From a virus (taxonomy: Duplodnaviria; Heunggongvirae; Uroviricota; Caudoviricetes): a stretch of DNA of 64,000 nt. The position numbers were made by a program, and so were the translations under genes. Below, piece by piece: positions 22,610 to 59,212 of this stretch (the stretch's first letter is position 1; every line of letters starts with the position of its first letter). Where the stretch lies: the IMG/VR virus record IMGVR_UViG_3300021399_000121, positions 43,502-107,501 of that record. One strand, given 5' to 3'. The notes under the pieces are model-generated. The model had not been told where the DNA came from, searched no databases, and saw nothing but the letters and a program-made list of their open reading frames with translations.

Positions 22610-22685
22610 GGCCTTGTAGTTAAGTTGGTTATAATAATTGTCTTGTAAACAATAGTCCTCAGTTCGAATCTGTGCGAGGCCTCCA
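22610..22685 (+). tRNA. tRNA-Thr (anticodon TGT).
   Basis: Cloverleaf folded by hand: acceptor GGCCTTG/CGAGGCC, anticodon loop CTTGTAA, T-loop TTCGAAT, CCA encoded. Confidence 0.6.
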
Positions 22686-22688
22686 TAC

Positions 22689-22763
22689 CGGGCGTTAGTG
22701 AAGCGGTTATCACAATGGTCTGTCTAACCATTATCACGGGTTCGATTCCCGTACGCCTGGCCA
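22689..22763 (+). tRNA. tRNA-Asp (anticodon GTC); tentative.
   Basis: D-stem GTGA/TCAC, anticodon stem ATGGT/ACCAT with loop CTGTCTA, T-arm ACGGGTTCGATTCCCGT, CCA encoded. Confidence 0.45.
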
Positions 22764-22766
22764 TAT

Positions 22767-22853
22767 GCCGAAGTCGCATAGTCTGGTCAATTGCATCGCG
22801 CTGTAAACGCGACGGCTCGTCCTGCGGGAGTTCAAATCTCTCCTTCGGCACCA
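22767..22853 (+). tRNA. tRNA-Tyr (anticodon GTA), type II with a long variable arm.
   Basis: Acceptor GCCGAAG/CTTCGGC, anticodon loop CTGTAAA, long variable arm, CCA encoded. Confidence 0.6.
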
Positions 22854-22862
22854 GTTAATTAC

Positions 22863-22940
22863 ACCCCAGTAGCTCAGTCTGAAAAGAGCATTGCGCTACG
22901 GACGCAAGTGTCGTGGGTTTGAATCCTACCTGGGGTGCCA
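22863..22940 (+). tRNA. tRNA-Arg (anticodon ACG).
   Basis: Acceptor ACCCCAG/CTGGGGT (7 bp), D-arm TAGCTCAGT, loop CTACGGA, CCA encoded. Confidence 0.6.
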
Positions 22941-22949
22941 ATAATCAAT

Positions 22950-23024
22950 GGGAGTCTAGCTGAGATGGATTAGCAAGGGTCTGAAAAGCCCTGGAGGAGG
23001 GATCGTTACCTTCGGCTCCCACCA
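22950..23024 (+). tRNA. tRNA-Phe (anticodon GAA) with an atypical T-loop, ATCGTTA.
   Basis: Acceptor GGGAGTC/GGCTCCC, anticodon stem AGGGT/GCCCT with loop CTGAAAA, CCA encoded. Confidence 0.5.
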
Positions 23025-23025
23025 T

Positions 23026-23100
23026 GCGGGGTTAGCTCAATGGTGGAGCAGAGGACTCATAATCCTTTGGCTGTAGGTTCAAATCCTACACTCCGCACCA
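23026..23100 (+). tRNA. tRNA-Met/fMet (anticodon CAT).
   Basis: Acceptor GCGGGGT/ACTCCGC, loop CTCATAA, T-loop TTCAAAT, CCA encoded. Confidence 0.6.
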
Positions 23101-23103
23101 AAT

Positions 23104-23180
23104 GCGCTTGTAGCAGAATTGGCATATGCACCGGACTCAAAATCCGGGATTTGTGAGTTCGACTCTCACCAGGCGCACCA
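23104..23180 (+). tRNA. tRNA with a tRNA-Trp-like body but anticodon loop CUCAAAA (nominal anticodon CAA) on a type I scaffold. It is a candidate recoding tRNA.
   Basis: Its anticodon stem CCGGA/TCCGG and T-arm GTGAGTTCGACTCTCAC closely resemble bacterial tRNA-Trp. A CAA anticodon on a short-variable-arm tRNA is anomalous. CCA is encoded. Confidence 0.45.
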
Positions 23181-23183
23181 AAT

Positions 23184-23264
23184 GCCCTTGTGGTGGAATT
23201 GGAAGACACGCGTGCCTTAGGAGCACGTGCTTAGGCGTGGGGGTTCGAATCCCTCCAGGGGCAG
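23184..23264 (+). tRNA. tRNA-Leu (anticodon TAG), type II.
   Basis: Acceptor GCCCTTG/CAGGGGC, anticodon stem CGTGC/GCACG with loop CTTAGGA, long variable arm. Confidence 0.55.
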
Positions 23265-23325
23265 TTGCGAGAATCAGAAACCTCCACGTGGTTCGCAATG
23301 GTTAACACTAATATCTGATATTTAT

Positions 23326-23396
23326 TGGCGATTAGTTCAATAGTAGAACTCGGGCCTTTGGCACCCGTAACGGGGGAGCGTTACCTCCATCGCCAG
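23326..23396 (+). tRNA. tRNA-Gln (anticodon TTG). Position 1 is U, as in bacterial tRNA-Gln.
   Basis: Acceptor TGGCGAT/ATCGCCA, loop CTTTGGC, atypical T-loop AGCGTTA. Confidence 0.5.
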
Positions 23397-23398
23397 CC

Positions 23399-23473
23399 CG
23401 TTCCTTAGTATAAAAGTTATTACAGACGCCTGATAAGCGTCAGAACCAGGAGCGTTACCTGGAGGAACGACCA
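23399..23473 (+). tRNA. tRNA-Ile (anticodon GAT).
   Basis: Acceptor CGTTCCT/AGGAACG, anticodon stem GACGC/GCGTC with loop CTGATAA, T-stem CCAGG/CCTGG, CCA encoded. Confidence 0.55.
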
Positions 23474-23475
23474 AT

Positions 23476-23552
23476 GTCGGCATCGTCTAGTTGGACTAGG
23501 ACACTACCCTTTCAAGGTAGAAACGCGGGATCGTAGCCCGCTGCTGATACCA
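23476..23552 (+). tRNA. tRNA-Glu (anticodon TTC).
   Basis: Anticodon stem CTACC/GGTAG with loop CTTTCAA, T-arm GCGGGATCGTAGCCCGC, CCA encoded. Confidence 0.5.
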
Positions 23553-23869
23553 TAGACACTACCTCCAAAAGTGATGATACTTTTATGTGCGGAGGTCATG
23601 AACCGCACATCCAGTAAAATCATGGATGGACTAATGAGCATAGCGGTGTTAGATGCATGGTTCTGATCATGACAGAGACGGTGGTGATGCTTGTGTAGCT
23701 ATCACCCTATGCGACCATAAAGAGAAAAGAATATAATATGATAGAAAAAATTAAAAATTGAATTACAAAAAGAAAATATCATCACGTTTTAACATGCGGT
23801 GCAGCTTCAATTATTATAAAAAATTAGTTGACTCCTGTTCAATATTTATGATATAATATATTTATAAGG

Positions 23870-24073
23870 TTGAGAGGAGATAATATGGCTGATAAGAAAG
23901 TTGTTCATCGTATTTATCATCCTAAAGGATGGGTTGTGCGGACTTACTCAACTAACAAGCAAGCTAAAGCTTTTATTGAGGGTATTAATTTCAATATTCC
24001 CTCTTGGCATTATGATGAACTTTATAAGATGCGGGCGGAGGTAACGGATAGTGACGAAATCTGCTATGCTTAA
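23870..24073 (+). CDS. Small protein encoded inside the tRNA array (MADKKVVHRIYHPKGW...).
   Basis: Conserved promoter at 23822-23860 and RBS GGAGATAAT. Confidence 0.4.
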   Translation: MRGDNMADKKVVHRIYHPKGWVVRTYSTNKQAKAFIEGINFNIPSWHYDELYKMRAEVTDSDEICYA

Positions 24074-24257
24074 AAAATATATTGTTTGTGAAGAATGCAT
24101 TGATGGAAAATGGGGATTTTATTCTATTCGTATGAATACTGATTGTAGTCCTTCACGTTTTATTATAGTTGCAAGTTTTGATACGTATGAAGAAGCAAAT
24201 GAATACATAGATTATTTATTGCATCCAGAAGATTATTTTAATCATGATGATGATTAG
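24051..24257 (+). CDS. Small hypothetical 68-aa protein.
   Basis: ORF track entry; overlaps the upstream gene. Confidence 0.35.
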   Translation: MTKSAMLKKYIVCEECIDGKWGFYSIRMNTDCSPSRFIIVASFDTYEEANEYIDYLLHPEDYFNHDDD

Positions 24258-24266
24258 CACCTTGTG

Positions 24267-24338
24267 ACGCGGGGTAGAGTACTGGTAACTCAACGTCCTC
24301 ATAAGTCGTGATATACGCGTTCGAATCGCGTCCCCGCG
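24267..24338 (+). tRNA. Second CAT-anticodon tRNA, either an elongator Met or a lysidine-modified Ile2.
   Basis: Acceptor CGCGGGG/CCCCGCG (perfect 7 bp), D-stem GAGT/ACTC, loop CTCATAA, T-arm ACGCGTTCGAATCGCGT. Confidence 0.55.
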
Positions 24339-24471
24339 ACACAGGGTAGCTGCATACCTGTTCGATAAAGTTCAAAAAGATAGCAGAGAGATGAAGGGTG
24401 AAACCGGATAATAGATACAATGTCTGAACTACTAAAGTATCTTTCTCTCTTAAAATTTTATTCCCGGTTCG

Positions 24472-24535
24472 TTCAACGGCAGGACGCGACACTGTTAATG
24501 TCGTTATACTGGTTCGAATCCAGTACTGGGAGCCA
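24472..24535 (+). tRNA. tRNA-Asn (anticodon GTT).
   Basis: Acceptor TCCCGGT/ACTGGGA, anticodon stem CGACA/TGTCG with loop CTGTTAA, T-arm ACTGGTTCGAATCCAGT, CCA encoded. Confidence 0.55.
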
Positions 24536-24538
24536 TAT

Positions 24539-24802
24539 TCGCTCGTGACGCAGCTGGTAGCGTAGTGGACTTTCGATTGGAAGCCTTATAAGGAAACTTA
24601 TAAGTGAACAGCTCGCTAAATCGGTGAAACCTTTAAAATGGTAATACCGAGCAAGGGAAACCGTGTGTAGAGACTTTACACGAGCCACCTAAGTTTTATA
24701 ATATGGTGAAGATAAAGTCCAGACCACAAACAGAAATGGCTATGAAAATAGTAGTGGTATGTAATCCATTAGTCGCGGGTTCGAATCCCGCCGGGCGAAC
24801 CA
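24539..24802 (+). tRNA. Candidate split tRNA with an anticodon-loop intron. The 5' half is at 24539-24572 and the 3' half at 24765-24802, separated by about 190 nt.
   Basis: The acceptor TCGCTCG pairs 7/7 with CGGGCGA across 250 nt. The 5' half has a canonical D-arm (ACGC AGCTGGTA GCGT) and the 5' strand of an anticodon stem, GTGGA. The 3' half has the partner strand TCCAT, T-arm GCGGGTTCGAATCCCGC and an encoded ACCA. One possible splice restores the loop CUUUUAA (Lys-UUU); another restores CUUGUAA (Thr). Confidence 0.35.
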
Positions 24803-24804
24803 AT

Positions 24805-24880
24805 ACCGAGTTAGCTTAATTGGCAAAGCGCGACACTCTTAATGTCGGAGATGTGGGATCGTGGCCCATGCTCGGTACCA
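24805..24880 (+). tRNA. tRNA-Lys (anticodon CTT).
   Basis: Acceptor ACCGAGT/GCTCGGT, D-stem GCTT/AAGC, anticodon stem CGACA/TGTCG with loop CTCTTAA, CCA encoded. Confidence 0.55.
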
Positions 24881-24890
24881 AATAACAAAT

Positions 24891-24967
24891 ACCCGTGTCG
24901 TATAAATGGAAGTATAGCTTGACTCCAAATCAAGAAGGCGTCTGTTCGATTCGGACTGCGGGTGCCA
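24891..24967 (+). tRNA. tRNA-Trp (anticodon CCA).
   Basis: Acceptor ACCCGTG/TGCGGGT, anticodon stem CTTGA/TCAAG with loop CTCCAAA, T-arm GTCTGTTCGATTCGGAC, CCA encoded. The D-stem appears to pair U11-A24. Confidence 0.55.
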
Positions 24968-24975
24968 TATAATAA

Positions 24976-25051
24976 GCCGCATTAGCTCAAGAGGAAGAGC
25001 CGTAGTCTTCTAAACTACTTGTTATAGGTTCGAGTCCTATATGCGGCGCCA
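24976..25051 (+). tRNA. tRNA-Arg (anticodon TCT).
   Basis: Acceptor GCCGCAT/ATGCGGC, D-arm TAGCTCAAGAGGAAGAGC, loop CTTCTAA, CCA encoded. Confidence 0.6.
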
Positions 25052-25064
25052 GTTAATTATAAAC

Positions 25065-25154
25065 GGAAGATTGGCCGAGTCTGGATTATGGCGCCTGCCT
25101 CGAAAGCAGGTGTACCGCTAGGTACCGTGGGTTCAAATCCTACATCTTCCGCCA
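25065..25154 (+). tRNA. tRNA-Ser (anticodon CGA), type II.
   Basis: Acceptor GGAAGAT/ATCTTCC, anticodon stem CCTGC/GCAGG with loop CTCGAAA, long variable arm, CCA encoded. Confidence 0.55.
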
Positions 25155-30117: not shown

Positions 30118-30197
30118 GCGCATATGGCGGAGTCTGGTCGATCGCAACGGCCTGCAAAGCCGTATAATCGTTAGTTCAAATCTAACTATGCGCTCCA
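30118..30197 (+). tRNA. tRNA-Cys (anticodon GCA).
   Basis: Acceptor GCGCATA/TATGCGC, anticodon stem ACGGC/GCCGT with loop CTGCAAA, T-arm GTTAGTTCAAATCTAAC, CCA encoded. Confidence 0.55.
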
Positions 30198-30201
30198 ATA
30201 T

Positions 30202-30294
30202 GGAAGTGTGGCCGAGTGGTTGATGGCGCTTCTCTGCTAAAGAAGTAGGCGATGTAGAGTCGTTTCCGGGGTTCAAATCCCCGCACTTCCTCCA
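30202..30294 (+). tRNA. tRNA-Ser (anticodon GCT), type II.
   Basis: Acceptor GGAAGTG/CACTTCC, anticodon stem CTTCT/AGAAG with loop CTGCTAA, long variable arm, CCA encoded. Confidence 0.55.
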
Positions 30295-46935: not shown

Positions 46936-47621
46936 CTTTTCTTTTATGTGGTGCGGTGCGGTGCGGTGCAGCTGTCTAAAAAACTTTAAACAAATGTAAT
47001 ACTTTTTGGTGAACGGTATTAAATTTGCCGCGGATGGTAAGAATCGCTCTAGACGAATGTAATAAAGATATGATATAATTAATCTTAGAGATTAATTAAT
47101 ATATAAATATATATTTCTATATTATTATTATAGTTATATATATTTCTAATCCCCTAATATAATATATGTTGCGTTTCTCTCTCTTTTAATCTTATAATAA
47201 CTATTTAATAATATTTTATAACGATATTTTTACTAATAATTGCGTGCGGCCCTATACTAAAGTATAGGCCCTTACGCTTATACAGCGCCACTTTGAGCTA
47301 AAGCTCAAGGGCGCTTTTTTTATTGTCTAAAATTATTTTATTTAAAAAATAATTAAACTAAAACTATGCGGCGAACTTGACAAAAGCATAATTTTATGAT
47401 ATAATTAAAATGATTATTTTTTTAAAAAAAAAGAAGCTCTCAAAATAGCTTAAAAAAATCCCTAAAAAGTTGTTTTGTCCCTTGGCAAACCTTATGATAA
47501 ATGAGCTTTTTGCTGGGCAGAGAGCGCACTTCAGCTAAGCTAAAATAAGCTTTCCGACCAAGTAATCAGACCCTTTTTAAAATTGCGCAAATGAGAGCAA
47601 ATCAAGTAGTTTTCCACAACG

Positions 47622-47630
47622 TTATCCACA
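47622..47630 (+). promoter_or_regulatory. Perfect DnaA box TTATCCACA, with flanking TTTCCACA-like half-sites.
   Basis: GTTATCCACA at 47621-47630. Confidence 0.4.
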
Positions 47631-47750
47631 CTTTTTCCACCTATGGCCGCACGCCTTTATTTATTCTCTTCTCTTGGAATTTACTTGACAGAAACACAAA
47701 TTTATGATATAATTAAATGTTAATAAATTATAGCTGGTGTCAATAAATTT

Positions 47751-47839
47751 GCCTATAGCGAGTGCAAATTCGCGGCCTTATAGCGAGCACGGCTCGATGC
47801 GCCTATAGCGAGTGTCATCGTGAGGCCCTATAACGGCAG
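47751..47839 (+). repeat. Four direct repeats of GCC(T)TATAGCGAG (iterons or a centromere-like site).
   Basis: Copies at 47751, 47775, 47801 and 47825. Confidence 0.6.
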
Positions 47840-48032
47840 TCGTACATCCGTTCGGTTTTGGGATTTTAGTGAATTAATTGTGAAGATTTTGTGGAGATCG
47901 AATTTTTCCCTTGACTATGTGGTATAATTTCGCTAGAATGCGCCGCATTCTAGCGCTGAAAGGTTTAAGCAAAAGAAAAACCCCGCCATTACTGGGCGGG
48001 GTTCTCGCCATTACTGGGCGATTGGGTGAGAG

Positions 48033-48398
48033 TTACACCAGCTTGTAGCCGACGTAACGCCCTTTCACCTTTTCGACTTTCTCCACCTTGCCAGCGGAGA
48101 TAAGCACGGCCATAACCTTGGTGCATTTCTGCGAAGTCATGATGCCGTTGACATGCTCCATAATCCACGAGGTCAGCACAGGCTCACCCTCGGGCATAAC
48201 CTTGAGCACTTCACCAGCCAGACGGACGTTTTCCTTGGCCGCCTTGGACGGCTCATCAGACTTTACGCGAGGTTTGGTGATACTTGCTAGCATCTTGGCT
48301 GCGACCTCACGAGCATCCTCACGGGCGAGGGTTTCGTAGTCGCCATTTACGACAGCGGTCAGGACTTCAGCGCGGGTGATGGTGATGTTCTTAGCCAT
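48033..48398 (-). CDS. GC-rich HTH-like paralogue (MAKNITITRAEVL...).
   Basis: The start was trimmed to the ATG behind the conserved leader. The ORF track frame was extended upstream. Confidence 0.45.
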   Translation of the reverse strand: MAKNITITRAEVLTAVVNGDYETLAREDAREVAAKMLASITKPRVKSDEPSKAAKENVRLAGEVLKVMPEGEPVLTSWIMEHVNGIMTSQKCTKVMAVLISAGKVEKVEKVKGRYVGYKLV

Positions 48399-48639
48399 AA
48401 TCGGCTCCTTTCGGTTGTGGGTGAGAACTTTTTTCTCTCTCCCTCTGACAGTTAATATATTACCAGAGATTGCCGCAGGGGTCAACAAAATTTTGTGTCT
48501 ACACATTCTCTCCATAATTTCAGGATTTAAAACAAGCCTCTGACCTGGGGTTTTGGCGATCGATTTTTTTCCATGCCGGCACAAGGGCAAATTCGCTTGA
48601 TTCCGCCGGAATCAAGCGCTGAAAGGGTTCTAGATAGCA

Positions 48640-48668
48640 AAAAACCCGCCTTTTTGGCGGGTTTTGCT
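48640..48668. terminator. Bidirectional rho-independent terminator.
   Basis: AAAAAACCCGCCTTTTTGGCGGGTTTTGCTTT. Confidence 0.6.
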
Positions 48669-49367
48669 TTAGAATTGCTGGAAACGCTTTGAAATTTCTT
48701 TCCAATGGGGATTGTGTAAGCACATTCCAACAAAATCTGAATCAAATTTGCGCTTACGAGAGAGAATTTTGCAGAAAATGAAGGCTTCTATTTCGCAATC
48801 TTCGCGGGCGGTGTGTTTTTCTTCAAATTCAGGCGCATTTTTCAAATATTTGTAAACCGCTTCGGCGCCTGTCTGCGGATGGCCTTTTGCAGTGGTCAGG
48901 CCATGTACCGCGCAGAATTTCAGATAGTTTCGACTATTGCACAGGACGGACAAAGCCATATTCCAAATGTCCATGTATTTGACCTTAGATTTAAAGAAGT
49001 CCTCATATCCAAAATATTTGGCGGTCTTGGTCAGATGCGAAGCGTCAAACCCTGCATTGTAGGCGCACACGGTAGCCTTAAAAGCTTTTTGCACTTTGTT
49101 AATCGTGGAACGAATTTCTGCGAAGGGGAGAACTGTAAACGCTTCGGTTCCCATGAAAAGCTCAAAGTAATATTGAGCGATTTTAGTTTTAGTAAATGGG
49201 TCGTTGAACATGTCAAGCGTTTCAGGGTGATTCATGAACTCTTCACAGACAAAGCTACCCTCAGCGACCATGTTACCCTTGCGGTCGATTACCTTGTAAC
49301 CAAAGTCGAAAACCAGGTCGTTGCACGTTTCAGTGTCAAGAATCATGAAGAACTTTTTGCTTGCCAT
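48669..49367 (-). CDS. DnaQ-like DEDDh 3'-5' exonuclease.
   Basis: Exo I ILDTETCND, Exo II YNAGFDASHL and Exo III HTAREDCE. Confidence 0.55.
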   Translation of the reverse strand: MASKKFFMILDTETCNDLVFDFGYKVIDRKGNMVAEGSFVCEEFMNHPETLDMFNDPFTKTKIAQYYFELFMGTEAFTVLPFAEIRSTINKVQKAFKATVCAYNAGFDASHLTKTAKYFGYEDFFKSKVKYMDIWNMALSVLCNSRNYLKFCAVHGLTTAKGHPQTGAEAVYKYLKNAPEFEEKHTAREDCEIEAFIFCKILSRKRKFDSDFVGMCLHNPHWKEISKRFQQF

Positions 49368-49708
49368 TTTATTTCCTTTCTCTCTCTGACAGTTAATATA
49401 TTACAGCATATGCCGCGCATAGTCAAGCATTAATTTCGGGATTTTGTTTCTTCATAATTTCTTCACAATCGATCGTTTTGTTTTTCCCTTGAGCGTAAAA
49501 AGGCAAATTCGCTCGCTTCCTGCGTAAGCGAGCGCTGAATAAAAAAACTCCCGCGTCCTGTGCGCACAGGCTGATAGCGGGAGGGAGTCTATTCTTCGGG
49601 CACCTTACCATTCCCTTTTGTTTGGCGGGGCTACCGCATTAATAAACTGTTTAATCACCTCTTTTGGATTGTGGGCGGGGAATTTCACCCCGCCCTGTTT
49701 AGATTGGT

Positions 49709-50029
49709 CTAAAGCTTGTAAACTTTGACCTTTTCGGTCGTGGGAATCTCTTCCCACCCCATTGCCTTGCAGATGGCATTTGCCTTGGGTTTCGAGACCT
49801 CCAGAATTTCAGCCACATTTGCAGCCTTAAAAGTCTCTTCATCCCAGACCTCGGCGAACTTTTCACCAAGGGCGATGTTCGCATCATGCTTTGCCGTGTT
49901 AGCCTTGCGGGGACGCGGCTTCGTTACCTGAGCGTACATCTTCTCCAGAACCTCTACTGCTTCGGCATTCTCAACAGCAGCAATCGCGATTTCCAGAGCT
50001 TCCTTGCGGGTCATCTTCTTCTCGGCCAT
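49709..50029 (-). CDS. HTH-like paralogue (MAEKKMTRKEALEIAIAAVEN...).
   Basis: The start was trimmed to the ATG behind the leader AGGAAAATGACATG. Confidence 0.45.
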   Translation of the reverse strand: MAEKKMTRKEALEIAIAAVENAEAVEVLEKMYAQVTKPRPRKANTAKHDANIALGEKFAEVWDEETFKAANVAEILEVSKPKANAICKAMGWEEIPTTEKVKVYKL

Positions 50030-50746
50030 GTCATTTTCCTTTCTTTCGTGGGGAGGTTTTCCTTTTTTCCTCTCCCCTCCTGACACTTAGTATATTACTC
50101 CTGTTGCCCCTCAGAGTCAAGCAAAATTTTCGAGAATCTTTCCCTCCATATTTCCTTCACAATTGCGGTTGTGCCGGCGAATGAGCTCCTGACCTGGGGA
50201 AATGGGATCTTCCTGATGGGTTTAAATGTGAGTGATCTAGTCAACTTTTTCCCTAGTGCGTTTAAAGGGCAATTCGGTCGTTTGCGCCGCAAACGACCGC
50301 TGAAAGCAAATCGCCCTGCCGACCTGACGTGCAGCGGGGCGATAAGTTTTAATTTACCAAGCACGATATTGCTTTTCTGCAATTTCGCGATACCTGCCAT
50401 TTACAGTATTGCGGAAGATACGCCACAGTTTAAAGAATGGGTTTCTAGTTCTAAAGCCGTGTGCCCACAAGAACCAAAAGTTTTCAATTGACTTTTTCTG
50501 TGTCCAAGCAGTAGCAGCACGAATCATTTTGTCTCTTTCAGTAAACATAATTTACCCCACAATCAGAATCGAAATTACCACAAAGATTTTTCAGTTAATT
50601 TTAACCATTCAAAATTACAGTTACGGCAATACTCACAATCATCAGGATACCAAGAACAATCTACCCGTTCAAGTTTAATTAGTCTTTCAACTTCTTTTTG
50701 ACGTTTTTTTGCAAGTCGTTTTTGTTCTTTTTTACTTGGCATAATC

Positions 50747-51043
50747 TTACCCCACAATCAGAATTGAAATTACCAGTCCAGCGGTGAGAGCAGTCAGACA
50801 AGCGTTTTTGATTTTGTCGGCTGCGGGGCGCTCCAAGTAGAAATCACGACCAAGAGCAATGAGGTTTGCGGCCAACCAAATGAGCTGTGCAACTAGTGCG
50901 AGGTCAAAGCGGACGAGCACCTGACCGATAATGGTCAAACCCAGACCCAAGAGTTGAAGATTCTCAACCAGTGCTACGTGCTTGCGGCTTGCCAGTTTGT
51001 TTGCTTGCTTCTCAGTCATTTTTAGTTCCTCTCTCTCTGACAA
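50747..51043 (-). CDS. Small membrane protein with two or three TM helices.
   Basis: ORF track entry; follows the conserved leader CTGTCAGAGAGAGAGGAACTAAAA. Confidence 0.45.
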   Translation of the reverse strand: MSEREELKMTEKQANKLASRKHVALVENLQLLGLGLTIIGQVLVRFDLALVAQLIWLAANLIALGRDFYLERPAADKIKNACLTALTAGLVISILIVG

Positions 51044-51166
51044 TTACATAGTATCATATTGATGGCATAATGTCAACTAATTTTTTAAAATTTCTTTGTT
51101 TCTATAAAATCCTTACAATGGAGCCAAGGCATAAAAACCCCTCGTTTGAGGGGTTTTAGTCATTGT

Positions 51167-51448
51167 TTAATTATTAGTAATTATTATTTGCCAATCATTC
51201 CCCCAATAGGGCTCAATGCTCAATATTTTGTAATTAAACCATCGTTTTATGCAAATAGGGCAATTATCTTTTTCGTTAGTCCAATTAATCATATTACCAA
51301 TTCTTTGTTCAGAGCTTGCTGAATAATCCCAATCTTCAATATTTTTGTTCAAATAAGTTTGATTATCGGATACGATAAAAAGATATATTGTAGCGTCATC
51401 ATCAAGTTCGTTTTTTTGTTCTGTTAGCCAATTTTGCAAGCTCATCAT
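51167..51448 (-). CDS. Hypothetical 93-aa protein.
   Basis: ORF track entry; conserved leader. Confidence 0.45.
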   Translation of the reverse strand: MMSLQNWLTEQKNELDDDATIYLFIVSDNQTYLNKNIEDWDYSASSEQRIGNMINWTNEKDNCPICIKRWFNYKILSIEPYWGNDWQIIITNN

Positions 51449-52179
51449 CTTAGTTCCTTTCTCTCTCTCAGTGATTACATCTTACACTAATTGCGGCGTG
51501 GTGTCAATTAGAATTTCAGGATTTTTTTGTCTCTACAGAATCTTCACAATCGCGATCGATCTTTTCTGGCCCGGGTGTAATGGTAAAATCGTGCGCTTTG
51601 GCCGAAAGCGCACGCTAAAAGCACTTAGGGCGGGTCACTACTCCCGCCCTCCCGTTGCATCACTTTTTATTTTAACGCCAAGAGCAACGCTGGACAACGA
51701 ACTTGGCGAGTGAACACTAAAGAGAAGCCCAGAGCTGGCACAAAATAGGGCCAAAAATCAAGCTGATAAAAACGAGATACACAACACATACAACTGGCAC
51801 GGCGATTTTCATAATTAGTCCTTCCAAAAGAAGTGGCGTAGGTGGAGATTGCCTAGCGCCCCGCTCAGGTTTAAAGAGGTTGTCTGACTGCCCCTACATG
51901 GAGGTCTTACTGCACATAGCACCTTGGGTGCCCCTCGGGTCTTACCCGTCTCCGAGCTCCGTCCTCTGACACTGTTAATATTACAGGAGTGCGGCCCATT
52001 TGTCAACCAGAATTGGTGTCTCCATAGGTTCTTCACATTTCAGGATTCCGATCGATCAGTGAGTGCGGTTTGTGCCGGTGATTAAATCTCTGACCTGCGG
52101 AAATAGCGAAAATCGTTCGCGTGGGCCGCACGCGAACGCAACCAGGATGGCTTTCTGGCTGCGTTCTGCGGTTTTTGGT

Positions 52180-52356
52180 TTAGACTTCCACATCCTCTAC
52201 AAAATCGCCATCTTCATCATAAATATCTGCGTGACCTCCGCCCATTTCGCGCAATTCAGCTTCGACCGCATTAATCAAAGACTTGTAGTTGTCATAATAG
52301 AAATAACTGCTGCCGCAATCATCGATGCCGTCAAATTCTACATAGTAAGTATTCAT
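52180..52356 (-). CDS. Small acidic 58-aa protein.
   Basis: Conserved leader GGAAAGAGGATG. It is absent from the ORF track because it is shorter than 60 aa. Confidence 0.35.
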   Translation of the reverse strand: MNTYYVEFDGIDDCGSSYFYYDNYKSLINAVEAELREMGGGHADIYDEDGDFVEDVEV

Positions 52357-52442
52357 CCTCTTTCCTTTCTCTTTACCTTACGGGTAAATTGTATCATAGA
52401 AAACAGTAGAAGTGAAGACCCCTTGCGGAGTCTTCACATTTT

Positions 52443-52640
52443 CTACACGTAGTATTCTTTACCAGAGGGGGTTACAATTCTCGCGACTTGCACATGATTA
52501 ACATAAACGAACTTTTTAGCTTCATCCATGACTTCAACGATGCAAGTTGCTTTGTATTCCCGCACACAGGAGCGACCAATAAAATCTTTGTACTTGAGCT
52601 GATAAACAACCTTTTTTGCGACTTTCTTTTTCATGGTCAC
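52443..52640 (-). CDS. Small basic 65-aa protein.
   Basis: ORF track entry; leader AGAGAAGGGAGTGACCATG. Confidence 0.4.
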   Translation of the reverse strand: MTMKKKVAKKVVYQLKYKDFIGRSCVREYKATCIVEVMDEAKKFVYVNHVQVARIVTPSGKEYYV

Positions 52641-52667
52641 TCCCTTCTCTCTTGGACTACGTCCAGT

Positions 52668-52916
52668 TTACCAGAGGTCTACCACAATATCAAGGTCGTT
52701 TTTGTCCTTCACATCTTCTCCACAATCGCGAAGTTGTGGCAAAAGATTTTCGCTTAATGGCATAGTAATTTCTGCCCCGACAAAGTCTTCTGAATCGAGA
52801 ACAATCTCTTCAGCAGCAATACGACGTTCGATTTCTTGAATAGCATCAGCCATAGTATCGGCTTCAATTACAATACGACGTTCGAGAGTTTCTTTGTAAT
52901 CAAAAGTGAATTTCAT
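52668..52916 (-). CDS. Hypothetical 82-aa protein.
   Basis: ORF track entry; leader AAGGAGAATTCATT. Confidence 0.4.
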   Translation of the reverse strand: MKFTFDYKETLERRIVIEADTMADAIQEIERRIAAEEIVLDSEDFVGAEITMPLSENLLPQLRDCGEDVKDKNDLDIVVDLW

Positions 52917-53458
52917 AATGAATTCTCCTTAACGATGACGATTGACCAACATACTGACTAAAAAAGGAGGAATAAATCCAGCTAAAAAGGGAACGAGTAC
53001 ATTACAAATAAATGCAGTCATAATTAATCCTCCTGCCCTTCTTCATCTTCATCTTCATACCGATGAGTAAAAATACTTTCAATCTCTCCATTCTTCATTT
53101 TTTGCTCAAAAAATTTTTGCGATTCTTGACTTTTTTTCTGAAGAAATTCGAACAGCGTCATGATTAATCCTTTCCTTTCTCTCTTGGATACATAATATCA
53201 TAGTCAGTTTCAGGATGCAATACTCTTCACAAAATCGTCACAATTGGAGTGATTTTTTTCAGCCTCGCGATAAACGTAATTTCGCTCGCTTGCGCCGCAA
53301 GCGAGCGCCCAAAGGTTTGGGCGCTCTTTTCATTTTTATTTTTTAAAAATTTTATTTTGCCAAATTGCAATTTCATCTTCATTCAAAAAGAGGGCTATTG
53401 CAATTATGATTATGAAAATGAATGCAATAATCAAATCAGAAAGTAACATTTCAATTTC

Positions 53459-53671
53459 CTAAGCTTTAAATTTGTTTCCCCAACCATCAGACAAATACAG
53501 CGGTTTAATAGTGTCTTTACAATTCCCTATAAAGGAAACAGCTTTATTAATGGCTTCTGCAACACCCAAGCATTTTCCGAGGTCGGTTTGACGATTGACC
53601 CATTCATTTTTATAGCTATAGTAAATCGCATAATGGAGCTTGTAATTGCCAACCCATTCCCGTTTCACCAT
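53459..53671 (-). CDS. Hypothetical 70-aa protein.
   Basis: ORF track entry; conserved leader. Confidence 0.4.
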   Translation of the reverse strand: MVKREWVGNYKLHYAIYYSYKNEWVNRQTDLGKCLGVAEAINKAVSFIGNCKDTIKPLYLSDGWGNKFKA

Positions 53672-53875
53672 TTCAGTTCCTTTCCTTTAACTTACAAATA
53701 AATTGTACTATAGATTATTTCCATTGTCAAGAAGAATTTCAGGATTTGGCTTCTTCATAATTACTTCATAAGTGCGGAAGATCTTTTTTCTGATGTAATT
53801 AAATGTAAAATCGTCCGCTGTGGCCGACAGCGGACGCGGAGCCTTTTTTGACTCCGCGTCCAAAAGAGAGAAGAA

Positions 53876-54082
53876 CTAGAAAAGTCTTTCGAGGTCTGCC
53901 CAGCTGTAGCCAATCGCAGGGGAGAGAATCAAGCGGCCAATTCCGATTTGCCATTTGAATTGCTCTTCTGCCTTCTTTTTAGCTTCAAGCAAATCTTCCT
54001 TGGTTGCGAAGAAGTCTACTCGCTGTTCATACAACTCAAAGGTGTCCTCATCTATCCATTCCCAAACCAGCATGAACTCCAT
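53876..54082 (-). CDS. Hypothetical 68-aa protein.
   Basis: ORF track entry; conserved leader. Confidence 0.4.
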   Translation of the reverse strand: MEFMLVWEWIDEDTFELYEQRVDFFATKEDLLEAKKKAEEQFKWQIGIGRLILSPAIGYSWADLERLF

Positions 54083-54277
54083 GATTTTTCCTTTCTCTCT
54101 CTCCCTGATGAATACATAATACTACAAAACATTACAGGATGCGGCATTTCCACATAATCTTCACAATTGCGATATTTTCTTTCTCTACCGGGTGTAAAGT
54201 GAATTTCGTTCGCGCTGGGCCCAGCGCGAACGCTGAGAGAGTTGCGGCTCTCTCGCGTTCATGATTTAAGCTCTTTT

Positions 54278-54724
54278 TTACAGCAGCTCCCGCAAAGCTG
54301 CAATCATCTTTTTAGTATCGGATGCATCTATCGTTTCACCCTTCCAAGCATTCCGCACGTCTGAATTATCGTCTACCAGAATAGAGTCTTTCACATTCCG
54401 CACATAATGTTTAGGAGTACCATATTTCACAACATGAAATTCAGAAAATACGCCAGGGAAGTATTCATCGCACCATATCTTTTTGGCTTTGCGGGTACGC
54501 CTACAATATTCACGGCTACCACCCATAGCACCCCAAGAGATAACACCAAGAATAAAACCTGCGGCCAGCAGTGCATTGAAAAGTTGCCGCAACTCTTCTA
54601 TATCAAAGATAACCGCGCAATCTTTATATGGAGTTGTATCTTCTACTTTCAGCATTTCCAGCCATCCCTCATATCCGTAGAGGTCTGCAATTGTTCCGTC
54701 CATGTCAAAATAGATAGCCTGCAT
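54278..54724 (-). CDS. HAD-superfamily phosphatase.
   Basis: FDMDGTIADL matches HAD motif I (DxDGT); 148 aa. Confidence 0.5.
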   Translation of the reverse strand: MQAIYFDMDGTIADLYGYEGWLEMLKVEDTTPYKDCAVIFDIEELRQLFNALLAAGFILGVISWGAMGGSREYCRRTRKAKKIWCDEYFPGVFSEFHVVKYGTPKHYVRNVKDSILVDDNSDVRNAWKGETIDASDTKKMIAALRELL

Positions 54725-55264
54725 TTGATTTCCTTTCTCTCAGTGATTACATACTACCATAATTCGTCTCTTGGAGTTATGGGATTCGCATATTCATAAT
54801 ATATACATATATTGCGAGTACGATTTTTCCCTGTTCATGCAAAAGGGCAATTCGGCCATTTGCTCTGAAAAACGCGCCGCAAATGGCCGGTTAAGCCTTA
54901 TACGCTTATAATTACATTATATCATAGCTTGAATTATATGTCAACCAGTTTGTCAAAAAATTTCTTATATTCACAAAATTCACACATTTGACCTTATAGT
55001 ACTGTATGTTTGCTTTATGTGCTTTATATGGAGATTTTGTGGAGATATTGTGTAGTTTCAGGATTGTAAAATAATTGTGTAGATATTGTGAAGACTCTTG
55101 ATTTTTCTCTATGTATATGGCACAATATCTCGCCCAACTTGTGGAGATTTTGTGGAGATATTGTGAAGATAATTGTGGAAATATTATGTTTTCAATGTGC
55201 AATTATTGAGGAGAAGCGACCCCTTTGTGGGGCCGCCCCCCTTTAAAACATGTGAATATTGAGC

Positions 55265-55561
55265 TTACAACTCAACAATAGAGATAAACTCATCGCCGTT
55301 CGGGTAACGCACGCCACCGCACATATACCCGAACATGTCCGCCAATTCGTCCAACGTCTCAATATAATCATCGTCGCTAGGAAACAGGCCATCAAACACG
55401 ACTTCGCAGCCCTGATACGAATACAGAATGTTTTCGTAAGCATACAGAGACAAGACATTGTCGCCGTATGTATTTGTATGCGAGTAGTTCATCATTTCGT
55501 CGAACAGGCTCTCAAGGTGATTTTTAACGCTTGCGTTGTTGGTGTTCATTTGGTAGGTCAT
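55265..55561 (-). CDS. GC-rich small protein (MTYQMNTNNASVKN...).
   Basis: Trimmed start; the 5' leader hairpin is TTGACCCGAAGGGTCAA. Confidence 0.4.
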   Translation of the reverse strand: MTYQMNTNNASVKNHLESLFDEMMNYSHTNTYGDNVLSLYAYENILYSYQGCEVVFDGLFPSDDDYIETLDELADMFGYMCGGVRYPNGDEFISIVEL

Positions 55562-56032
55562 CTTAGTTCCTCTCTCTTTCGGTTGACCCTTCGGGTCAAT
55601 TATAGCGTTGTCAATACTTTTTTTCAATGTTTTTTAAAATTAATCGGTGAGCGGTTAAATTAATCGGTAAATGGTAATTTTAGGATAGTATAAAATAATT
55701 GTGTAGATTTTGTGTAGACTATTGTTTTTTCTTTGCAAGTGTGGTATAATTTTTCGCTGAGATATGTAGATTTTGTGGAGATTTTGTGGAAATAAATTCA
55801 TAGAAAAAACATAATAATTTACATAATAAAAACATAATTAATTCATACAATCCTCATAATTATTTTACATAATCTCCATAATCAGGATACAAAATAAATT
55901 GTGTAAATGTTGTGAAGAGTCTTGATTTTTCTCTACATATGTGGTATAATATTTCGCCAATTGTGGAGATTTTGTGAAGATTTTGTGGAGATAATCGTGG
56001 GGAGGCCGAAGCCTCCCCTCATGGTCATGTTG

Positions 56033-56311
56033 TTAGAGTTCTTGAACCCTTACATATTTGAACATGTACCAGTATCCATTAATAAGTGCGGACTCATGCT
56101 CAATAAACAATTCATATCCAAACTCTGGGAGAATGTCGGCAAGTTCGTACATGTCAATGTACCCCGTTTTCTCACTCTGTAACACTTGCCATGTCCCACT
56201 GTTTTGCAATTCATCCATCGAAGCCCACGTGTTTGCGCTAGCGTCTGTTTCGACCTGATGCGCGAGGATTGTCTCTATAATCTCGTTGATGTAGTTTTTC
56301 ATGTTCGCCAT
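56033..56311 (-). CDS. GC-rich small protein (MANMKNYINE...).
   Basis: Trimmed start; the leader hairpin is GGCCCTACGGGCC. Confidence 0.4.
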   Translation of the reverse strand: MANMKNYINEIIETILAHQVETDASANTWASMDELQNSGTWQVLQSEKTGYIDMYELADILPEFGYELFIEHESALINGYWYMFKYVRVQEL

Positions 56312-56799
56312 TTGAGTTCCTTCCACTCGGTTTTTGTTTGGCCCGTAGGGCCATTTTACTCTTGTCAATAGGTAAAATCAACGTTTTTTAAAATTAATCG
56401 GTAAACGGTTAAATTAATCGGTAAATGACAATTTAAGATAATATAAAATAATTATGTAGATTTTGTGGAGATTTTATAAAGATTTTGTGAAGATTAATTC
56501 ACAGAAAAAACATAATAAAAGCATAATTAATTCATACAATCTTCATACAATCTCCGGTTTTAGGACACATAATCTACATAAAATCTACATACTATCTTCA
56601 TATTTTCTTCACAATTGCGTGGTATAATTTTTTCGCCGAGATATGCAGATTTTGTGAAGATTCTGCATTTAGTCTTGATTTTTTTCTACAGGCGTGGTAT
56701 AATTTTTTCGCTAGTCATGGAGATTTTGTGGAGATATTACATTTAATATTGACAAATAAAAAGCCCCTCATTTGAGGGGCTTTTGAATCACAATTCATT

Positions 56800-57132
56800 T
56801 TAGCGGCTGTTGTACGTTTCACGCGCTGGACGATTCATAAAGTCGTTGAGGTCTTTCAACAAGGGGAGTAATTCAGAGTTGAAAAATGACTCATCGTCCC
56901 ACACAGTAGCAGCAGTTTGCTTTGCGAGGAAGTGAAGCGCCATCCCAGCAGTTTTACCCTCAGTGTGCGCTTGAGGGTGGTCATAAGTGTACAGGCTCGC
57001 AAGGTAACCGCACTCATAAGGAGAAACCCAAATTTCTACATTACCACGAGTAGCGATATAGCGCATGCCCTCGCGCGTGTTCAGAGCTTCAAATGTTCCG
57101 TTGTTCTTCGTTGCTTTAGTCATTTCAATCAT
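56800..57132 (-). CDS. Hypothetical 110-aa protein.
   Basis: Leader hairpin GAACCCTACGGGTTC. A bidirectional terminator lies at 56760-56786. Confidence 0.45.
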   Translation of the reverse strand: MIEMTKATKNNGTFEALNTREGMRYIATRGNVEIWVSPYECGYLASLYTYDHPQAHTEGKTAGMALHFLAKQTAATVWDDESFFNSELLPLLKDLNDFMNRPARETYNSR

Positions 57133-57618
57133 CCTTCCTGTTGAACCCTACGGGTTCATTGTAGTCTTGTCAATAGGTAAAATCAATATTCTACATAAAT
57201 CTCCATACAAATAACATAATTAAAATTACATACAATCTACATAATTAATTCACATAATCTACATAATGAAAACATAATTAATCCATACGATCTACACAAT
57301 TAGGACACAAAATAAATTGTGGAGATTTTGTGTAGGCTCTTGACATTTTTCTGCGGGTGTAGTATAATATTTCGCCAATTGTGGAGATTTTGTGGAGATT
57401 TTGTGGAGATTAATCCACAGAAAAAACATAATTAATTCACACAATCTACATAATAAAAACATAATTAATTCACACGATCTACACAATTTCAGGATACTTT
57501 AATTGTGTAAAAGTTGTGGAGTTTTTGTGGATTTTTTATGGAGAGCGCGTCAAAATGGTAAAATCGCTCGTTTGCCCTATGCGTGGGTCCGCAAACGAGC
57601 GGCCAGCCCTTTCAAGCT

Positions 57619-57768
57619 GGCCAGGTTGTATTCAGCTACACTCTAGAACGGAGCGTAGGCCAGTTCTCCAGCGTTGGGCTGTGCCGCAATCCACATCTCG
57701 CAGTCAACCTCACAGACCAACCCTTCCTTGACGACCTTGCCAGTAGCCTTCTCGAATACTGTCCACAT
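57619..57768 (-). CDS. About 49-aa protein, MWTVFEKATGKVV...APF. It is paralogue 1 of a pair.
   Basis: Conserved leader AGGAAAGGACAGGACATG. Its sequence aligns with the product of 57960..58091. Confidence 0.35.
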
Positions 57769-57959
57769 GTCCTGTCCTTTCCTCTCCTGCTGACAGGTCT
57801 ATTATACACCTGTGCCCCTGCCGCATGTATGAGAATCAGGATACTCCACAATCTCTACACAACTATATAGATCGCTTGATCTTTCTCTTGGTGCGTGTAA
57901 AGGACATTTCGCTCGCCTAGGCCCGTAGGCGAGCGCTGGGAGGTCTTACTATCCCAGTG

Positions 57960-58091
57960 CTCTGAGCAGGACTAGAATGGCGCGCAATCCAGTTCGTCTC
58001 TATTCTCCTGCGCGTCAATCCACATCATCGCATCTACCTCAGTCTCGAACCCGTCCGCTACGACCTTGCCCGTGTTCTTGTTGAAGACCGT
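57960..58091 (-). CDS. About 43-aa protein, MWTVFNKNTGKVV...APF. It is paralogue 2 of the pair.
   Basis: Forms the C-terminal part of ORF 57972..58385; follows its own leader and promoter. Confidence 0.35.
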
Positions 58092-58302
58092 CCACATATT
58101 CTTTCCTCTCTCTCTTTCTGACATAATCATTGTACCACAAGTCGTGCCGCATGTAAAGATAGATTCAGGACTCTCCACAATCTCTACACAACTCTTTCTC
58201 TTGGATGATCTTTCTTGTGGTGCGCATAAACGATAATTCGCTCGCTGCGGCCCACAGCGAGCGGCCAGGTCTTTGTAGTTTACTGTGCGGTACTGGGGCA
58301 GG

Positions 58303-58526
58303 CTAGTTGCCCAGCCCCATAGCGTCCAGCATATCCCACACTTTGTAGTCATCTGCAGTGGTTCCTGTGGGAGTGAAGTCTGCAATCTCTACTATCCGTA
58401 CGCTTCCGCGCTTGTAGCACGAGTATGTACGAGCTTCTGCCGCATTGTTCTTGCAGGTGGAGAGAGAACCCCACCAGTGCAGGCAGGTCTCGGTGGAGTT
58501 GGCGAAGGTGGCGATGACTGCGAACA
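58303..58526 (-). CDS. GC-rich small protein (MFAVIATFANSTETC...).
   Basis: Trimmed start behind the leader GAGAGAAAGGATACAACATG. Confidence 0.4.
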
Positions 58527-59212
58527 TGTTGTATCCTTTCTCTCTGACAAGTACATAATACACCTTAACTGTATCTGTGTACAGTCTCTTCACAATCTTT
58601 TCATAAGTTTCAGGATATGAAAGATCATATTAGAATATGTATTTGGAAACTATTTTTATTTCTAGTATGCGTAAGTGACAATTCGCTCGTGTTGGCCCAA
58701 CACGAGCGAGCATCGTGAGAGTGTGCACGAGAGAGCGTGCGCGCAAGACCGCACAAAGCCTGCAAAGACGTGCCAGCAAGCGAGACAGCCGGGCTGCACG
58801 AACTGTCCTCTCTTGGGGTGATGGGAGGGTGTAGACATTGTTGCTATTATTTTATCGGTCGAGTATAGAAGACTGTTACATCATTATGATGATAAATAAA
58901 CTTCCTAGTAGGGGGGGTGATTATGGGATTTTTTAATATTGACTTGTGAAATGTCTTTTGCCTCGCAATCCAAAGAACGTACTTTAAATTTTAAATTTCA
59001 AGAACGTACTTAAGAATCCAAATCAAAATTTCCTATATTAAAATTTCCCAATATATCAAATTTCGGAAAACTTACCTCTCTAAAAATTATATTATATAGC
59101 TTAAAATTTTATGTTTCTATCCAAAAAAGTCATAGACAGTGTTGCTTTGTCAGTGATATAATAAGAATAGAAATAAAAGATTTGAGCTTAGCTTAAATCG
59201 GAAAGGAAGCAG

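Follow-up and report, generated by a model that had tools for sequence, protein, structure and literature searches.

Putative reverse-facing promoter units with 11-bp-phased box arrays among the small early genes of an uncultured SPbeta-like phage

Introduction

Here we describe six plus-strand promoter-like sites, P1 to P6, and the short repeated box TTGTGRAGA that surrounds them, at 54950-57450 of a 64,000-nt stretch of viral DNA (IMG/VR record IMGVR_UViG_3300021399_000121; hereafter the window), where a first-pass annotation had proposed promoters for small non-coding RNAs packed with repeats, or decoys titrating a regulator. Promoters between blocks of contiguous repeats are known from parC/ParR of plasmid R1 and from the omega-repressor heptads of pSM19035, in which two blocks flank the -35/-10 region and a small protein binds them cooperatively and represses the promoter. 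Blocks of ~11-bp direct repeats flank the promoter here too, but they occur in many copies and not at one locus, the promoter drives no operon, and no partition-type match was found among the window proteins scanned. The stoperators of cluster A mycobacteriophages (L5) are asymmetric 13-bp repressor sites, intergenic, transcription-oriented and downstream of promoters, and the present boxes are likewise oriented, intergenic and found downstream of promoters; stoperators, however, are single sites in the sense orientation of coding operons, whereas the boxes form phased tandem arrays. In the type I toxin-antitoxin systems of SPbeta (bsrG/SR4, yonT/SR6) a small RNA is convergent to a small phage gene with which it has a common 3' end or terminator, and the convergent arrangement and shared hairpins recur here, with an extent of overlap that depends on termination. 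Type I toxins are, however, hydrophobic membrane peptides of at most ~60 amino acids (aa), whereas the convergent genes A, B and C of the window encode hydrophilic/acidic proteins of 98, 92 and 110 aa, and any overlap here would be minimal, with no conservation of the RNA sequence.

Published work provides two further comparisons. Promoter-early stem-loops (PeSLs) are mobile regulatory cassettes of T4-type phages (PMC2839356, PMC4122927), and the window resembles them in having repeated composites of promoter and hairpin between small variable early genes of a hyperplastic region, and whole-cassette insertions or deletions (indels) between close relatives. In contrast to PeSLs, which are co-oriented with a downstream open reading frame (ORF) and express it, the cassettes here face against the genes and head no ORF, and they combine iteron-like box arrays with extended -10 promoters of the sigma-A type, in an SPbeta-like phage of Gram-positive type. 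SPBRE, a short element at about ten SPbeta promoter regions, is the operator of the master repressor MrpR/YopR; it is a single 15-bp motif, and its binder has a tyrosine-recombinase fold (PMC10516654). One short element likewise recurs at many promoter regions of the SPbeta-like genome studied here, but its unit is 11 bp and forms tandem and inverted arrays; none of the large ORFs scanned in the 64-kb window, which is less than half of a genome of ~140 kb, gave an integrase-like match.

We assign the units to none of the compared systems, as in each at least one defining feature fails or, for SPBRE as described, differs. At a probability of roughly 0.45, we favour the reading that they are regulated, reverse-facing, operator-controlled early-promoter cassettes.

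Results

Predicted plus-strand promoters facing small early genes

All six sites lie where the first-pass annotation had placed them, although the full promoter form that it had given holds only for P3 (TTGATT-17-TGgTATAAT, extended -10; 55922-55950, plus strand as for all six), P5 (TTGATT-17-TGgTATAAT; 56675-56703) and P6 (TTGACA-17-TATAAT, a 12/12 match with TAG for TGG before the -10; 57340-57368). These three have the features of a sigma-A-type promoter in full, P6 without the TG, while the other three deviate: P1 (TTGATT-17-TGgCACAAT; 55098-55126) has a weaker -10, P2 (TTGTTT-17-TGgTATAAT; 55722-55750) has a weak -35 and reads into P3, and P4 (56620-56628, -10 hexamer at 56623-56628) is the extended -10 TGGTATAAT with no -35 at 17 ± 1 nt, where ATATTT stands instead, and reads into P5. 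Since the cores are near-consensus sigma-A-type sites with an extended -10, host RNA polymerase should be able to use them unaided. The composite T[GA]GTATAAT-N(1-3)-TTTCG occurs five times, always on the plus strand at 55.7-57.4 kb, and never on the minus strand.

Each intergenic region is a divergent pair, in which a minus-strand promoter serves the left-hand gene (54916-54944, 55599-55627, 56353-56381 and 57158-57186) and one or two plus-strand promoters face the 3' end of the right-hand gene. The genes so faced, all on the minus strand, are gene A (55265-55561) by P1, gene B (56033-56311) by P2 and P3, gene C (56800-57132) by P4 and P5, and gene D (57643-57768) by P6. A seventh plus-strand unit at 47878-48006, outside the 54950-57450 stretch of the first-pass annotation, consists of two boxes, TTGACT..TGGTATAATTTCGC, ~60 nt and the terminator of a convergent winged-helix gene. 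Directly upstream of it, at 47745-47830, CCTATAGCGAG(T/C)G occurs three times.

We found no plausible ORF with a ribosome-binding site downstream of any of the six promoters, in line with the claim that they head none; translations of the box repeats differ from copy to copy, and the only ORFs there begin upstream of the promoters. A covariance search of 46.5-60.5 kb with Rfam 15, run with a permissive cutoff, gave best scores of 22-27 bits against thresholds of 41-55, all on terminator hairpins. The units are intergenic, convergent, non-coding and promoter-headed, and their description as antisense or intergenic to the minus-strand genes holds. The minus-strand promoter at 54944-54916 is a perfect TTGACA-17-TGaTATAAT and lies ~190 nt upstream of a HAD-like gene (54278-54724), and the leader between them (54745-54945, minus strand) contains a hairpin, GGCCATTTGC..GCAAATGGCC, plus a second, proximal promoter-like site.

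Boxes flank the promoters at an 11-bp phase

The abundance of the box is confirmed: the window has 30 exact TTGTGRAGA matches, where shuffles give 1.28 ± 1.10 and at most 4. Of the 30, 20 lie on the plus strand between 55037 and 57409. When one mismatch is allowed, 23 of 36 spacings between successive same-strand boxes in 54950-57650 are exactly 11 bp, and the remainder are mostly 22 or 33 bp. Tandem Repeats Finder likewise picks out arrays of 11-nt units at 55139-55185, 55961-55992 and 57379-57411; in the third array, 3 copies are 100% identical. Some 50 boxes are packed into 2.6 kb, in 11-bp arrays that alternate in opposite orientation. Across the window, tandem box pairs are nearly confined to 47.9-58.6 kb, and most of them, on both strands, have a co-oriented promoter-like site 0-40 nt further on.

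Upstream of the plus-strand promoters, two boxes start 23 and 12 nt ahead of the -35 and fill the UP-element position up to 3 bp from it; one such pair, at 55075-55096, abuts the P1 -35 and the others lie at 55699-55720 (P2), 55899-55920 (P3), 56641-56662 (P5) and 57317-57338 (P6), all on the plus strand. Downstream there are arrays of two to four boxes, the first 11-13 nt past the -10, at about +5, which together occupy +5 to +37; the array of P1 has four boxes with the first 13 nt past the -10 (55139-55183), and those of the other promoters are at 55762-55794 (P2), 55961-55993 (P3), 56641-56662 (P4), 56715-56736 (P5) and 57379-57411 (P6), again all on the plus strand. Across the window, arrays placed 10-12 nt downstream of a -10 are found at plus-strand promoters only. 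The upstream boxes are degenerate and the downstream ones mostly consensus, and the distance from the first upstream to the first downstream box is 62-64 bp, or ~6 helical turns, at P1, P2, P3 and P6.

What remains of the spacers is filled by degenerate boxes in the opposite orientation, also at an 11-bp phase, as at 57420-57488 (minus strand; TTATGTAGAT / TGTGAATTAA / TTATGTTTTT), 55800-55883, 56500-56616 and 57190-57301, the last of which abuts the -35 of the gene C promoter, again with a gap of 3 bp. The tail-to-tail point of minus- and plus-strand arrays is marked by TTTCAGGAT (reverse complement ATCCTGAAA), at 57489-57497 on the plus strand and likewise at 55056-55064, 55679-55687, 55881-55889, 56558-56566 and 57298-57306; this motif is also the 5' edge of the conserved promoter module described below.

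The same box had been reported upstream of minus-strand promoters, and we indeed find it at seven such places, near 49460, 51541, 52717, 53224, 54158, 58172 and 58587. The upstream layout of the minus-strand early genes at 48000-54200 and 57800-58600 is two boxes, ATCCTGAAA, a promoter, a purine-rich leader CAGAGAGAGAAAGGA and ATG; some of these promoters, near 53232 and 54166, lack a recognisable -35, and ATTATGTAT replaces the -10. A second repeat, TTAATCGGT(A/G)A(A/G)CGGTTAAATTAATCGGTAAAT, precedes the promoters of genes A and B, at 55640-55672 and 56385-56425.

A literature search for the box word returned unrelated primer sequences only. Sites of the OmpR/PhoB type are hexamer direct repeats with a period of ~11 bp beside the -35, and here TGTGRA-N5-TGTGRA abuts the -35, a resemblance and no more. 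An array of DnaA boxes (TTATNCACA 9-mers) was rejected, as the box differs at 2 of 8 specified positions and canonical DnaA boxes number 5 in the window against 4.6 expected, with none in the region. The operator of Rex, an inverted repeat TTGTGAA-N4-TTCACAA (PMC2883068), was rejected likewise: no site with up to 3 mismatches is present in 54.9-57.7 kb, the window has 5 matches against 6.9 expected, and the local inverted pairs are spaced by N6.

The promoter module is conserved in related metagenomic phages

For the comparison with relatives we used the contexts of gene C homologues and of members of the wh1 family, wh1 being a 121-aa protein with a C-terminal winged helix encoded at 48033-48398 on the minus strand; the related loci carry the prefix L. 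The conserved module reads YAGGAW - A-rich/two boxes - cTC-TTGAyT - T-rich then G-rich spacer - TGGTATAAT - tTTTCG-CC, and its core, including the spacer and the TTTTCGCC start region, is present in ~30 copies at nine related loci, with a further, doubtful match in L003. L029 has eight copies within 7 kb, with A/T-rich, UP-element-like sequence at the upstream box positions. Nearly all copies run opposite to the early genes; the exceptions, in L012, L015 and L018, are copies at block edges where the module drives the first gene of the divergent block. Phages that share the core, spacer and start region have flanking proteins that are only 50-70% identical.

Seven of 10 distinct phages (the window, L014, L006/7, L012, L015, L016 and L018) have a convergent promoter directly 3' of their gene C orthologue, whereas L013, L017 and L019 lack one there. 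Behind this promoter the relatives have a stretch of 65-100 nt and then a canonical bidirectional terminator, and the overlap with the convergent messenger RNA (mRNA) is confined to the terminator. P1 is kept in L014, P4 is conserved there as the sole promoter ahead of the terminator, and P6 has orthologues in L014 and L028. The transcribed segment carries three TTGTGGAGAT boxes in the window, L014 and L003, whereas behind the same promoter L028, L006, L012, L015 and L018 have GTTAAC-type repeats and GGCC hairpins instead, a swap that looks like the exchange of one operator set for another. The same five loci have, in place of the second repeat upstream of genes A and B, GTTAAC-N4-GTTAAC and CCGGCC elements past nearly all of their terminators.

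The modules are paralogous repeats of 87-138 nt with conserved spacers. The segment at 54.7-58.5 kb, with genes A-D and the six plus-strand promoters, is missing from L027 (IMGVR_UViG_3300021426_000095), which has a 97% identical wh1 and two other small genes, at 1190-2139, in its place; on this comparison the segment is an accessory island. L014 is without gene B and the 74-bp P5 module, and among these indels a base-level junction (4-bp TTGA) was obtained for P5 only. A metagenome scan with the P3/P6 module and its boxes returned solely a fragment identical to the window. In an apparently unrelated ~40-kb phage (L002 9570-9725, L004 6260-6410), two sets of four TTGTGGAGAT/TTGTGAAGA boxes in opposite orientation keep the 11-bp phase and have TGTGACAC(TTTT) repeats between them, immediately upstream of a gene for a primase-polymerase (phrog_4210).

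Hairpins and terminators

The hairpins that the first-pass annotation had placed after the promoters exist, 3' of all four genes, although its coordinates were slightly off and P2 and P4 have no hairpin after them. P1 transcripts would reach a GC hairpin 3' of gene A (55216-55236) that has no T-run on the plus strand, and those from P3 a hairpin 3' of gene B (55999-56018; GGGGAGGC-CGAA-GCCTCCCC) with a T-run on neither strand. P4 and P5 transcripts have in common with gene C a bidirectional intrinsic terminator (56759-56784; z = -3.7), which is kept in L006, L012, L014, L015, L016 and L018, and P6 leads to two hairpins 3' of gene D (57565-57622), of which 57601-57622 is terminator-like on the plus strand. 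Only 56759-56784 is a canonical terminator with a proper plus-strand T-run, so the transcripts from P1 and P3 need not be short as proposed.

A long-range RNA pairing downstream of P6 (z = -4.1) was rejected as a by-product of the oppositely oriented arrays, its distal arm not being kept in L014. The promoters of genes A, B and C also have GC-rich hairpins directly past the -10 (55586-55600, 56339-56353 and 57140-57154), as is the case in L006, L012 and L015, and these are probably not wholly within the mRNAs. Read on the plus strand, each hairpin runs into the T-rich complement of the -10, and two were flagged as terminator-like on that strand; such hairpins might stop antisense transcripts at the sense promoter.

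Convergent genes and candidate box-binding proteins

Gene A (98 aa, acidic) and gene B (92 aa) have no family match, and searches of genes A-D and the other small early genes against Pfam and PHROGs gave nothing useful beyond one DpnD/PcfM domain. This domain (E = 2e-9) is in an 82-aa early protein at 52668-52916 on the minus strand, the only family-matched small early gene of the block. Gene C (107-110 aa) belongs to a family of 21 clusters, and its model, with a predicted local distance difference test score (pLDDT) of 90, is a soluble beta-sheet with two helices and no significant PDB match. Gene D (41 aa) has a paralogue at 57972-58088; the two (41 and 38 codons, MWTVF.K.TGKVV...) each have a box/promoter unit of their own, and L014 likewise has two 41-codon genes.

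The candidates for the box binder are wh1, its paralogue wh2 (49709-50029, minus strand) or a host factor. The wh1 model has a pLDDT of 90, and its top structural matches are the centromere-binding protein AspA and ArsR/MarR/Z-alpha domains. Homologues of wh1 are encoded in the box-bearing loci L003, L005, L006, L012 and L013.

Phage and genomic context

The window encodes 18 transfer RNA (tRNA) genes, RNA ligases, tail-type proteins, a teichoic-acid glycerophosphotransferase and a Gram-positive pilin-type domain, and contigs with homologues of its genes reach 137-141 kb. The tRNA genes form two clusters, 22610-25154 and 30118-30294, and are on the plus strand throughout. Because YonD_N and YonG_N domains occur in genes neighbouring the window-gene homologues on the relatives' contigs, we assign the source, from its gene content, as an uncultured SPbeta-like phage, with a host that is probably a Gram-positive gut bacterium. 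DNA of 54.9-57.6 kb had no match among 50,697 cultured phage records, nor did cultured-phage protein searches with a 581-aa ORF and with wh1 return any match, and the gene C family, with which the host was sought, had no relative in either GTDB genomes or IMG/VR.

Genes in the window run mainly on the plus strand, with an inverted minus-strand block of small genes at ~48.0-58.6 kb in which every gene has its own promoter and terminator, and it is inside this block that the plus-strand promoter units lie. Elsewhere, the 581-codon ORF at 3648-5393, in a segment with a GC content of 0.50 against ~0.35, is overlapped by long antisense ORFs and matched nothing in PHROGs, Pfam or phages, so that it is perhaps not a protein gene. 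The non-coding segment at 47000-47720 includes an extremely AT-rich block (47080-47230), two perfect plus-strand promoters TTGACA-17-TGaTATAAT (47377-47405 and 47685-47713) and, at 47609-47640, a cluster of DnaA-box-like 9-mers, one of them a perfect TTATCCACA, and is a candidate replication origin.

Discussion

The conservation of the plus-strand units in promoter, orientation and position among related phages argues that they are used and functional, and it is plausible that they are small non-coding transcription units. That part of the small-RNA proposal of the first-pass annotation is retained. The part we would not keep is that the box repeats are the working part of an RNA, as the boxes are most likely DNA operators: they also flank the promoters upstream, outside the transcribed part, they are co-oriented with promoters on both strands, they occupy UP-element and +5 to +37 operator positions, and behind the same promoter in close relatives TTGTGGAGAT is replaced by a GTTAAC-type repeat.

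In the operator-controlled cassettes that we favour, a sequence-specific protein would bind the boxes head-to-tail along one face of the helix. With the consensus boxes at +5 to +37 occupied, the plus-strand promoters would be shut; with the boxes free, they would fire toward the 3' ends of genes A-D, and the resulting non-coding transcripts would halt at, or leak past, the hairpin common to the convergent gene. These transcripts would act in cis, where convergent transcription or antisense pairing at the 3' end would damp or insulate each small-gene cassette, and box occupancy would switch expression between the plus-strand units and the box-bearing minus-strand promoters. Box repeats within the RNA would then be a by-product of operator placement.

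Several points weigh against this account. The use of the promoters, the ends of their transcripts and any influence on genes A-D are all read from sequence, and as the hairpins after P1 and P3 have no T-runs, the transcripts from these promoters may be long antisense RNAs and not short ones. The most perfect boxes are the transcribed ones, which suits a role at the RNA level too. Inverted pairs show complementary changes between copies (TGTGGA..TCCACA versus TGTGAA..TTCACA, and ATGCAGA..TCTGCAT versus ATGTAGA..TCTACAT), which would fit an RNA hairpin and a palindromic site alike, and one copy in L014 has a G-U-tolerant variant. In the P1 and P3 RNAs, moreover, the stretch with the boxes is predicted to be essentially unstructured, which also speaks for a role at the RNA level. 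As for the binder, the winged-helix match of wh1 is generic (Foldseek E ~0.03), and its co-occurrence with the boxes may reflect shared ancestry only. A host factor or an origin-type role is also possible, because an identical box array adjoins the primase-polymerase gene in L002 and L004.

The alternative that survives best is that the cassettes are mainly recombination linkers similar to PeSLs, offering homology for cassette shuffling, and that their transcripts have no regulatory role. The swap of 54.7-58.5 kb for other small genes beside the 97% identical wh1 of L027, the lack of gene B and the 74-bp P5 module in L014, and the make-up of the modules as 87-138 nt paralogous repeats with conserved spacers would all be expected of such linkers, and there is a precedent in PeSLs, which are described as composites of terminator and promoter through which indels arise in hyperplastic regions (PMC4122927, PMC2839356). 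We nonetheless consider it unlikely: the reverse orientation is held in ~30 copies and the convergent promoter of gene C in 7 of 10 phages, and this retention of orientation and position suggests selection on function and not on homology alone, while the P5 indel is flanked by the 4-bp TTGA microhomology only and not by long repeats. As an evolutionary layer, linker activity is well supported, and it is compatible with operator-controlled cassettes.

We are more doubtful that the transcripts are functional RNAs, either antisense to genes A-D or trans-acting decoys whose tandem UUGUGGAGAU units (GGA/GGAG) attract an RNA-binding protein or ribosomes. The convergent geometry and the terminators in common would suit antisense RNAs, yet in relatives the mRNA overlap is the terminator only, and genes A-C encode hydrophilic proteins of 92-110 aa and not short hydrophobic toxins. 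Although an unstructured box part in the P1 and P3 RNAs is what a protein sponge would be expected to have, boxes also occur outside the transcribed stretches and on both strands. RNA structure is suggested in relatives by two hairpins, one of GGCC at the 5' end and one of GTTAG..CTAAC with two compensatory pairs, ahead of a terminator, and in L014 by the one G-U-tolerant inverted pair, but there is no Rfam match and the RNA content differs between close relatives. For RNA or DNA decoy or titration roles, which the first-pass annotation had raised and which we regard as less likely, no finding speaks in favour.

It is improbable, too, that the arrays are foremost a DNA-level sink or a centromere-, origin- or nucleoprotein-like structure to which the promoters are secondary. 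The density of ~50 boxes per 2.6 kb in alternating, opposite 11-bp arrays invites this explanation, and the layout is like that of the 11-bp iterons flanking the parMR promoter in parC of plasmid R1; furthermore, the top structural match of wh1 is a centromere-binding protein and the L002/L004 arrays adjoin a primase-polymerase gene. However, no partition nucleoside triphosphatase or replication gene adjoins the arrays in the window, where 47.0-47.7 kb is a better candidate for an origin. L027 does without the island, which weighs against an essential origin or centromere, and boxes and promoters track one-to-one.

That the sites are unused consensus look-alikes, relics of duplicated inverted promoter modules, is very unlikely, since relics would decay and the core, spacer and start region are kept although the flanking proteins are 50-70% identical, even if P1, P2 and P4 are off consensus. 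Least probable of all, we would rank a decoy RNA family in which unstructured 5' parts with two to four tandem UUGUGGAGAU units and GGA/GGAG cores would sequester an RNA-binding regulator or the 30S subunit early in infection, as a CsrB-like sponge of a Gram-positive phage, with the DNA copies tying RNA output to the same circuit.

If the operator-controlled cassettes that we favour are borne out, an uncultured group of SPbeta-like gut phages of roughly 140 kb would have its early accessory genes arranged in separate cassettes. With each cassette would go a strong non-coding promoter, reverse-facing and under operator control, and one DNA-binding factor would switch or insulate many small host-takeover genes compactly and repeatedly. 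The analysis offers a concrete candidate operator for this, TTGTGRAGAT at an 11-bp phase, together with two candidate regulators, and the identical array in an apparently unrelated phage hints at a common, possibly host-encoded, binding factor. Near-consensus promoters with swappable operators, TTGTGGAGAT or GTTAAC-type, would also be possible parts for Gram-positive synthetic biology.

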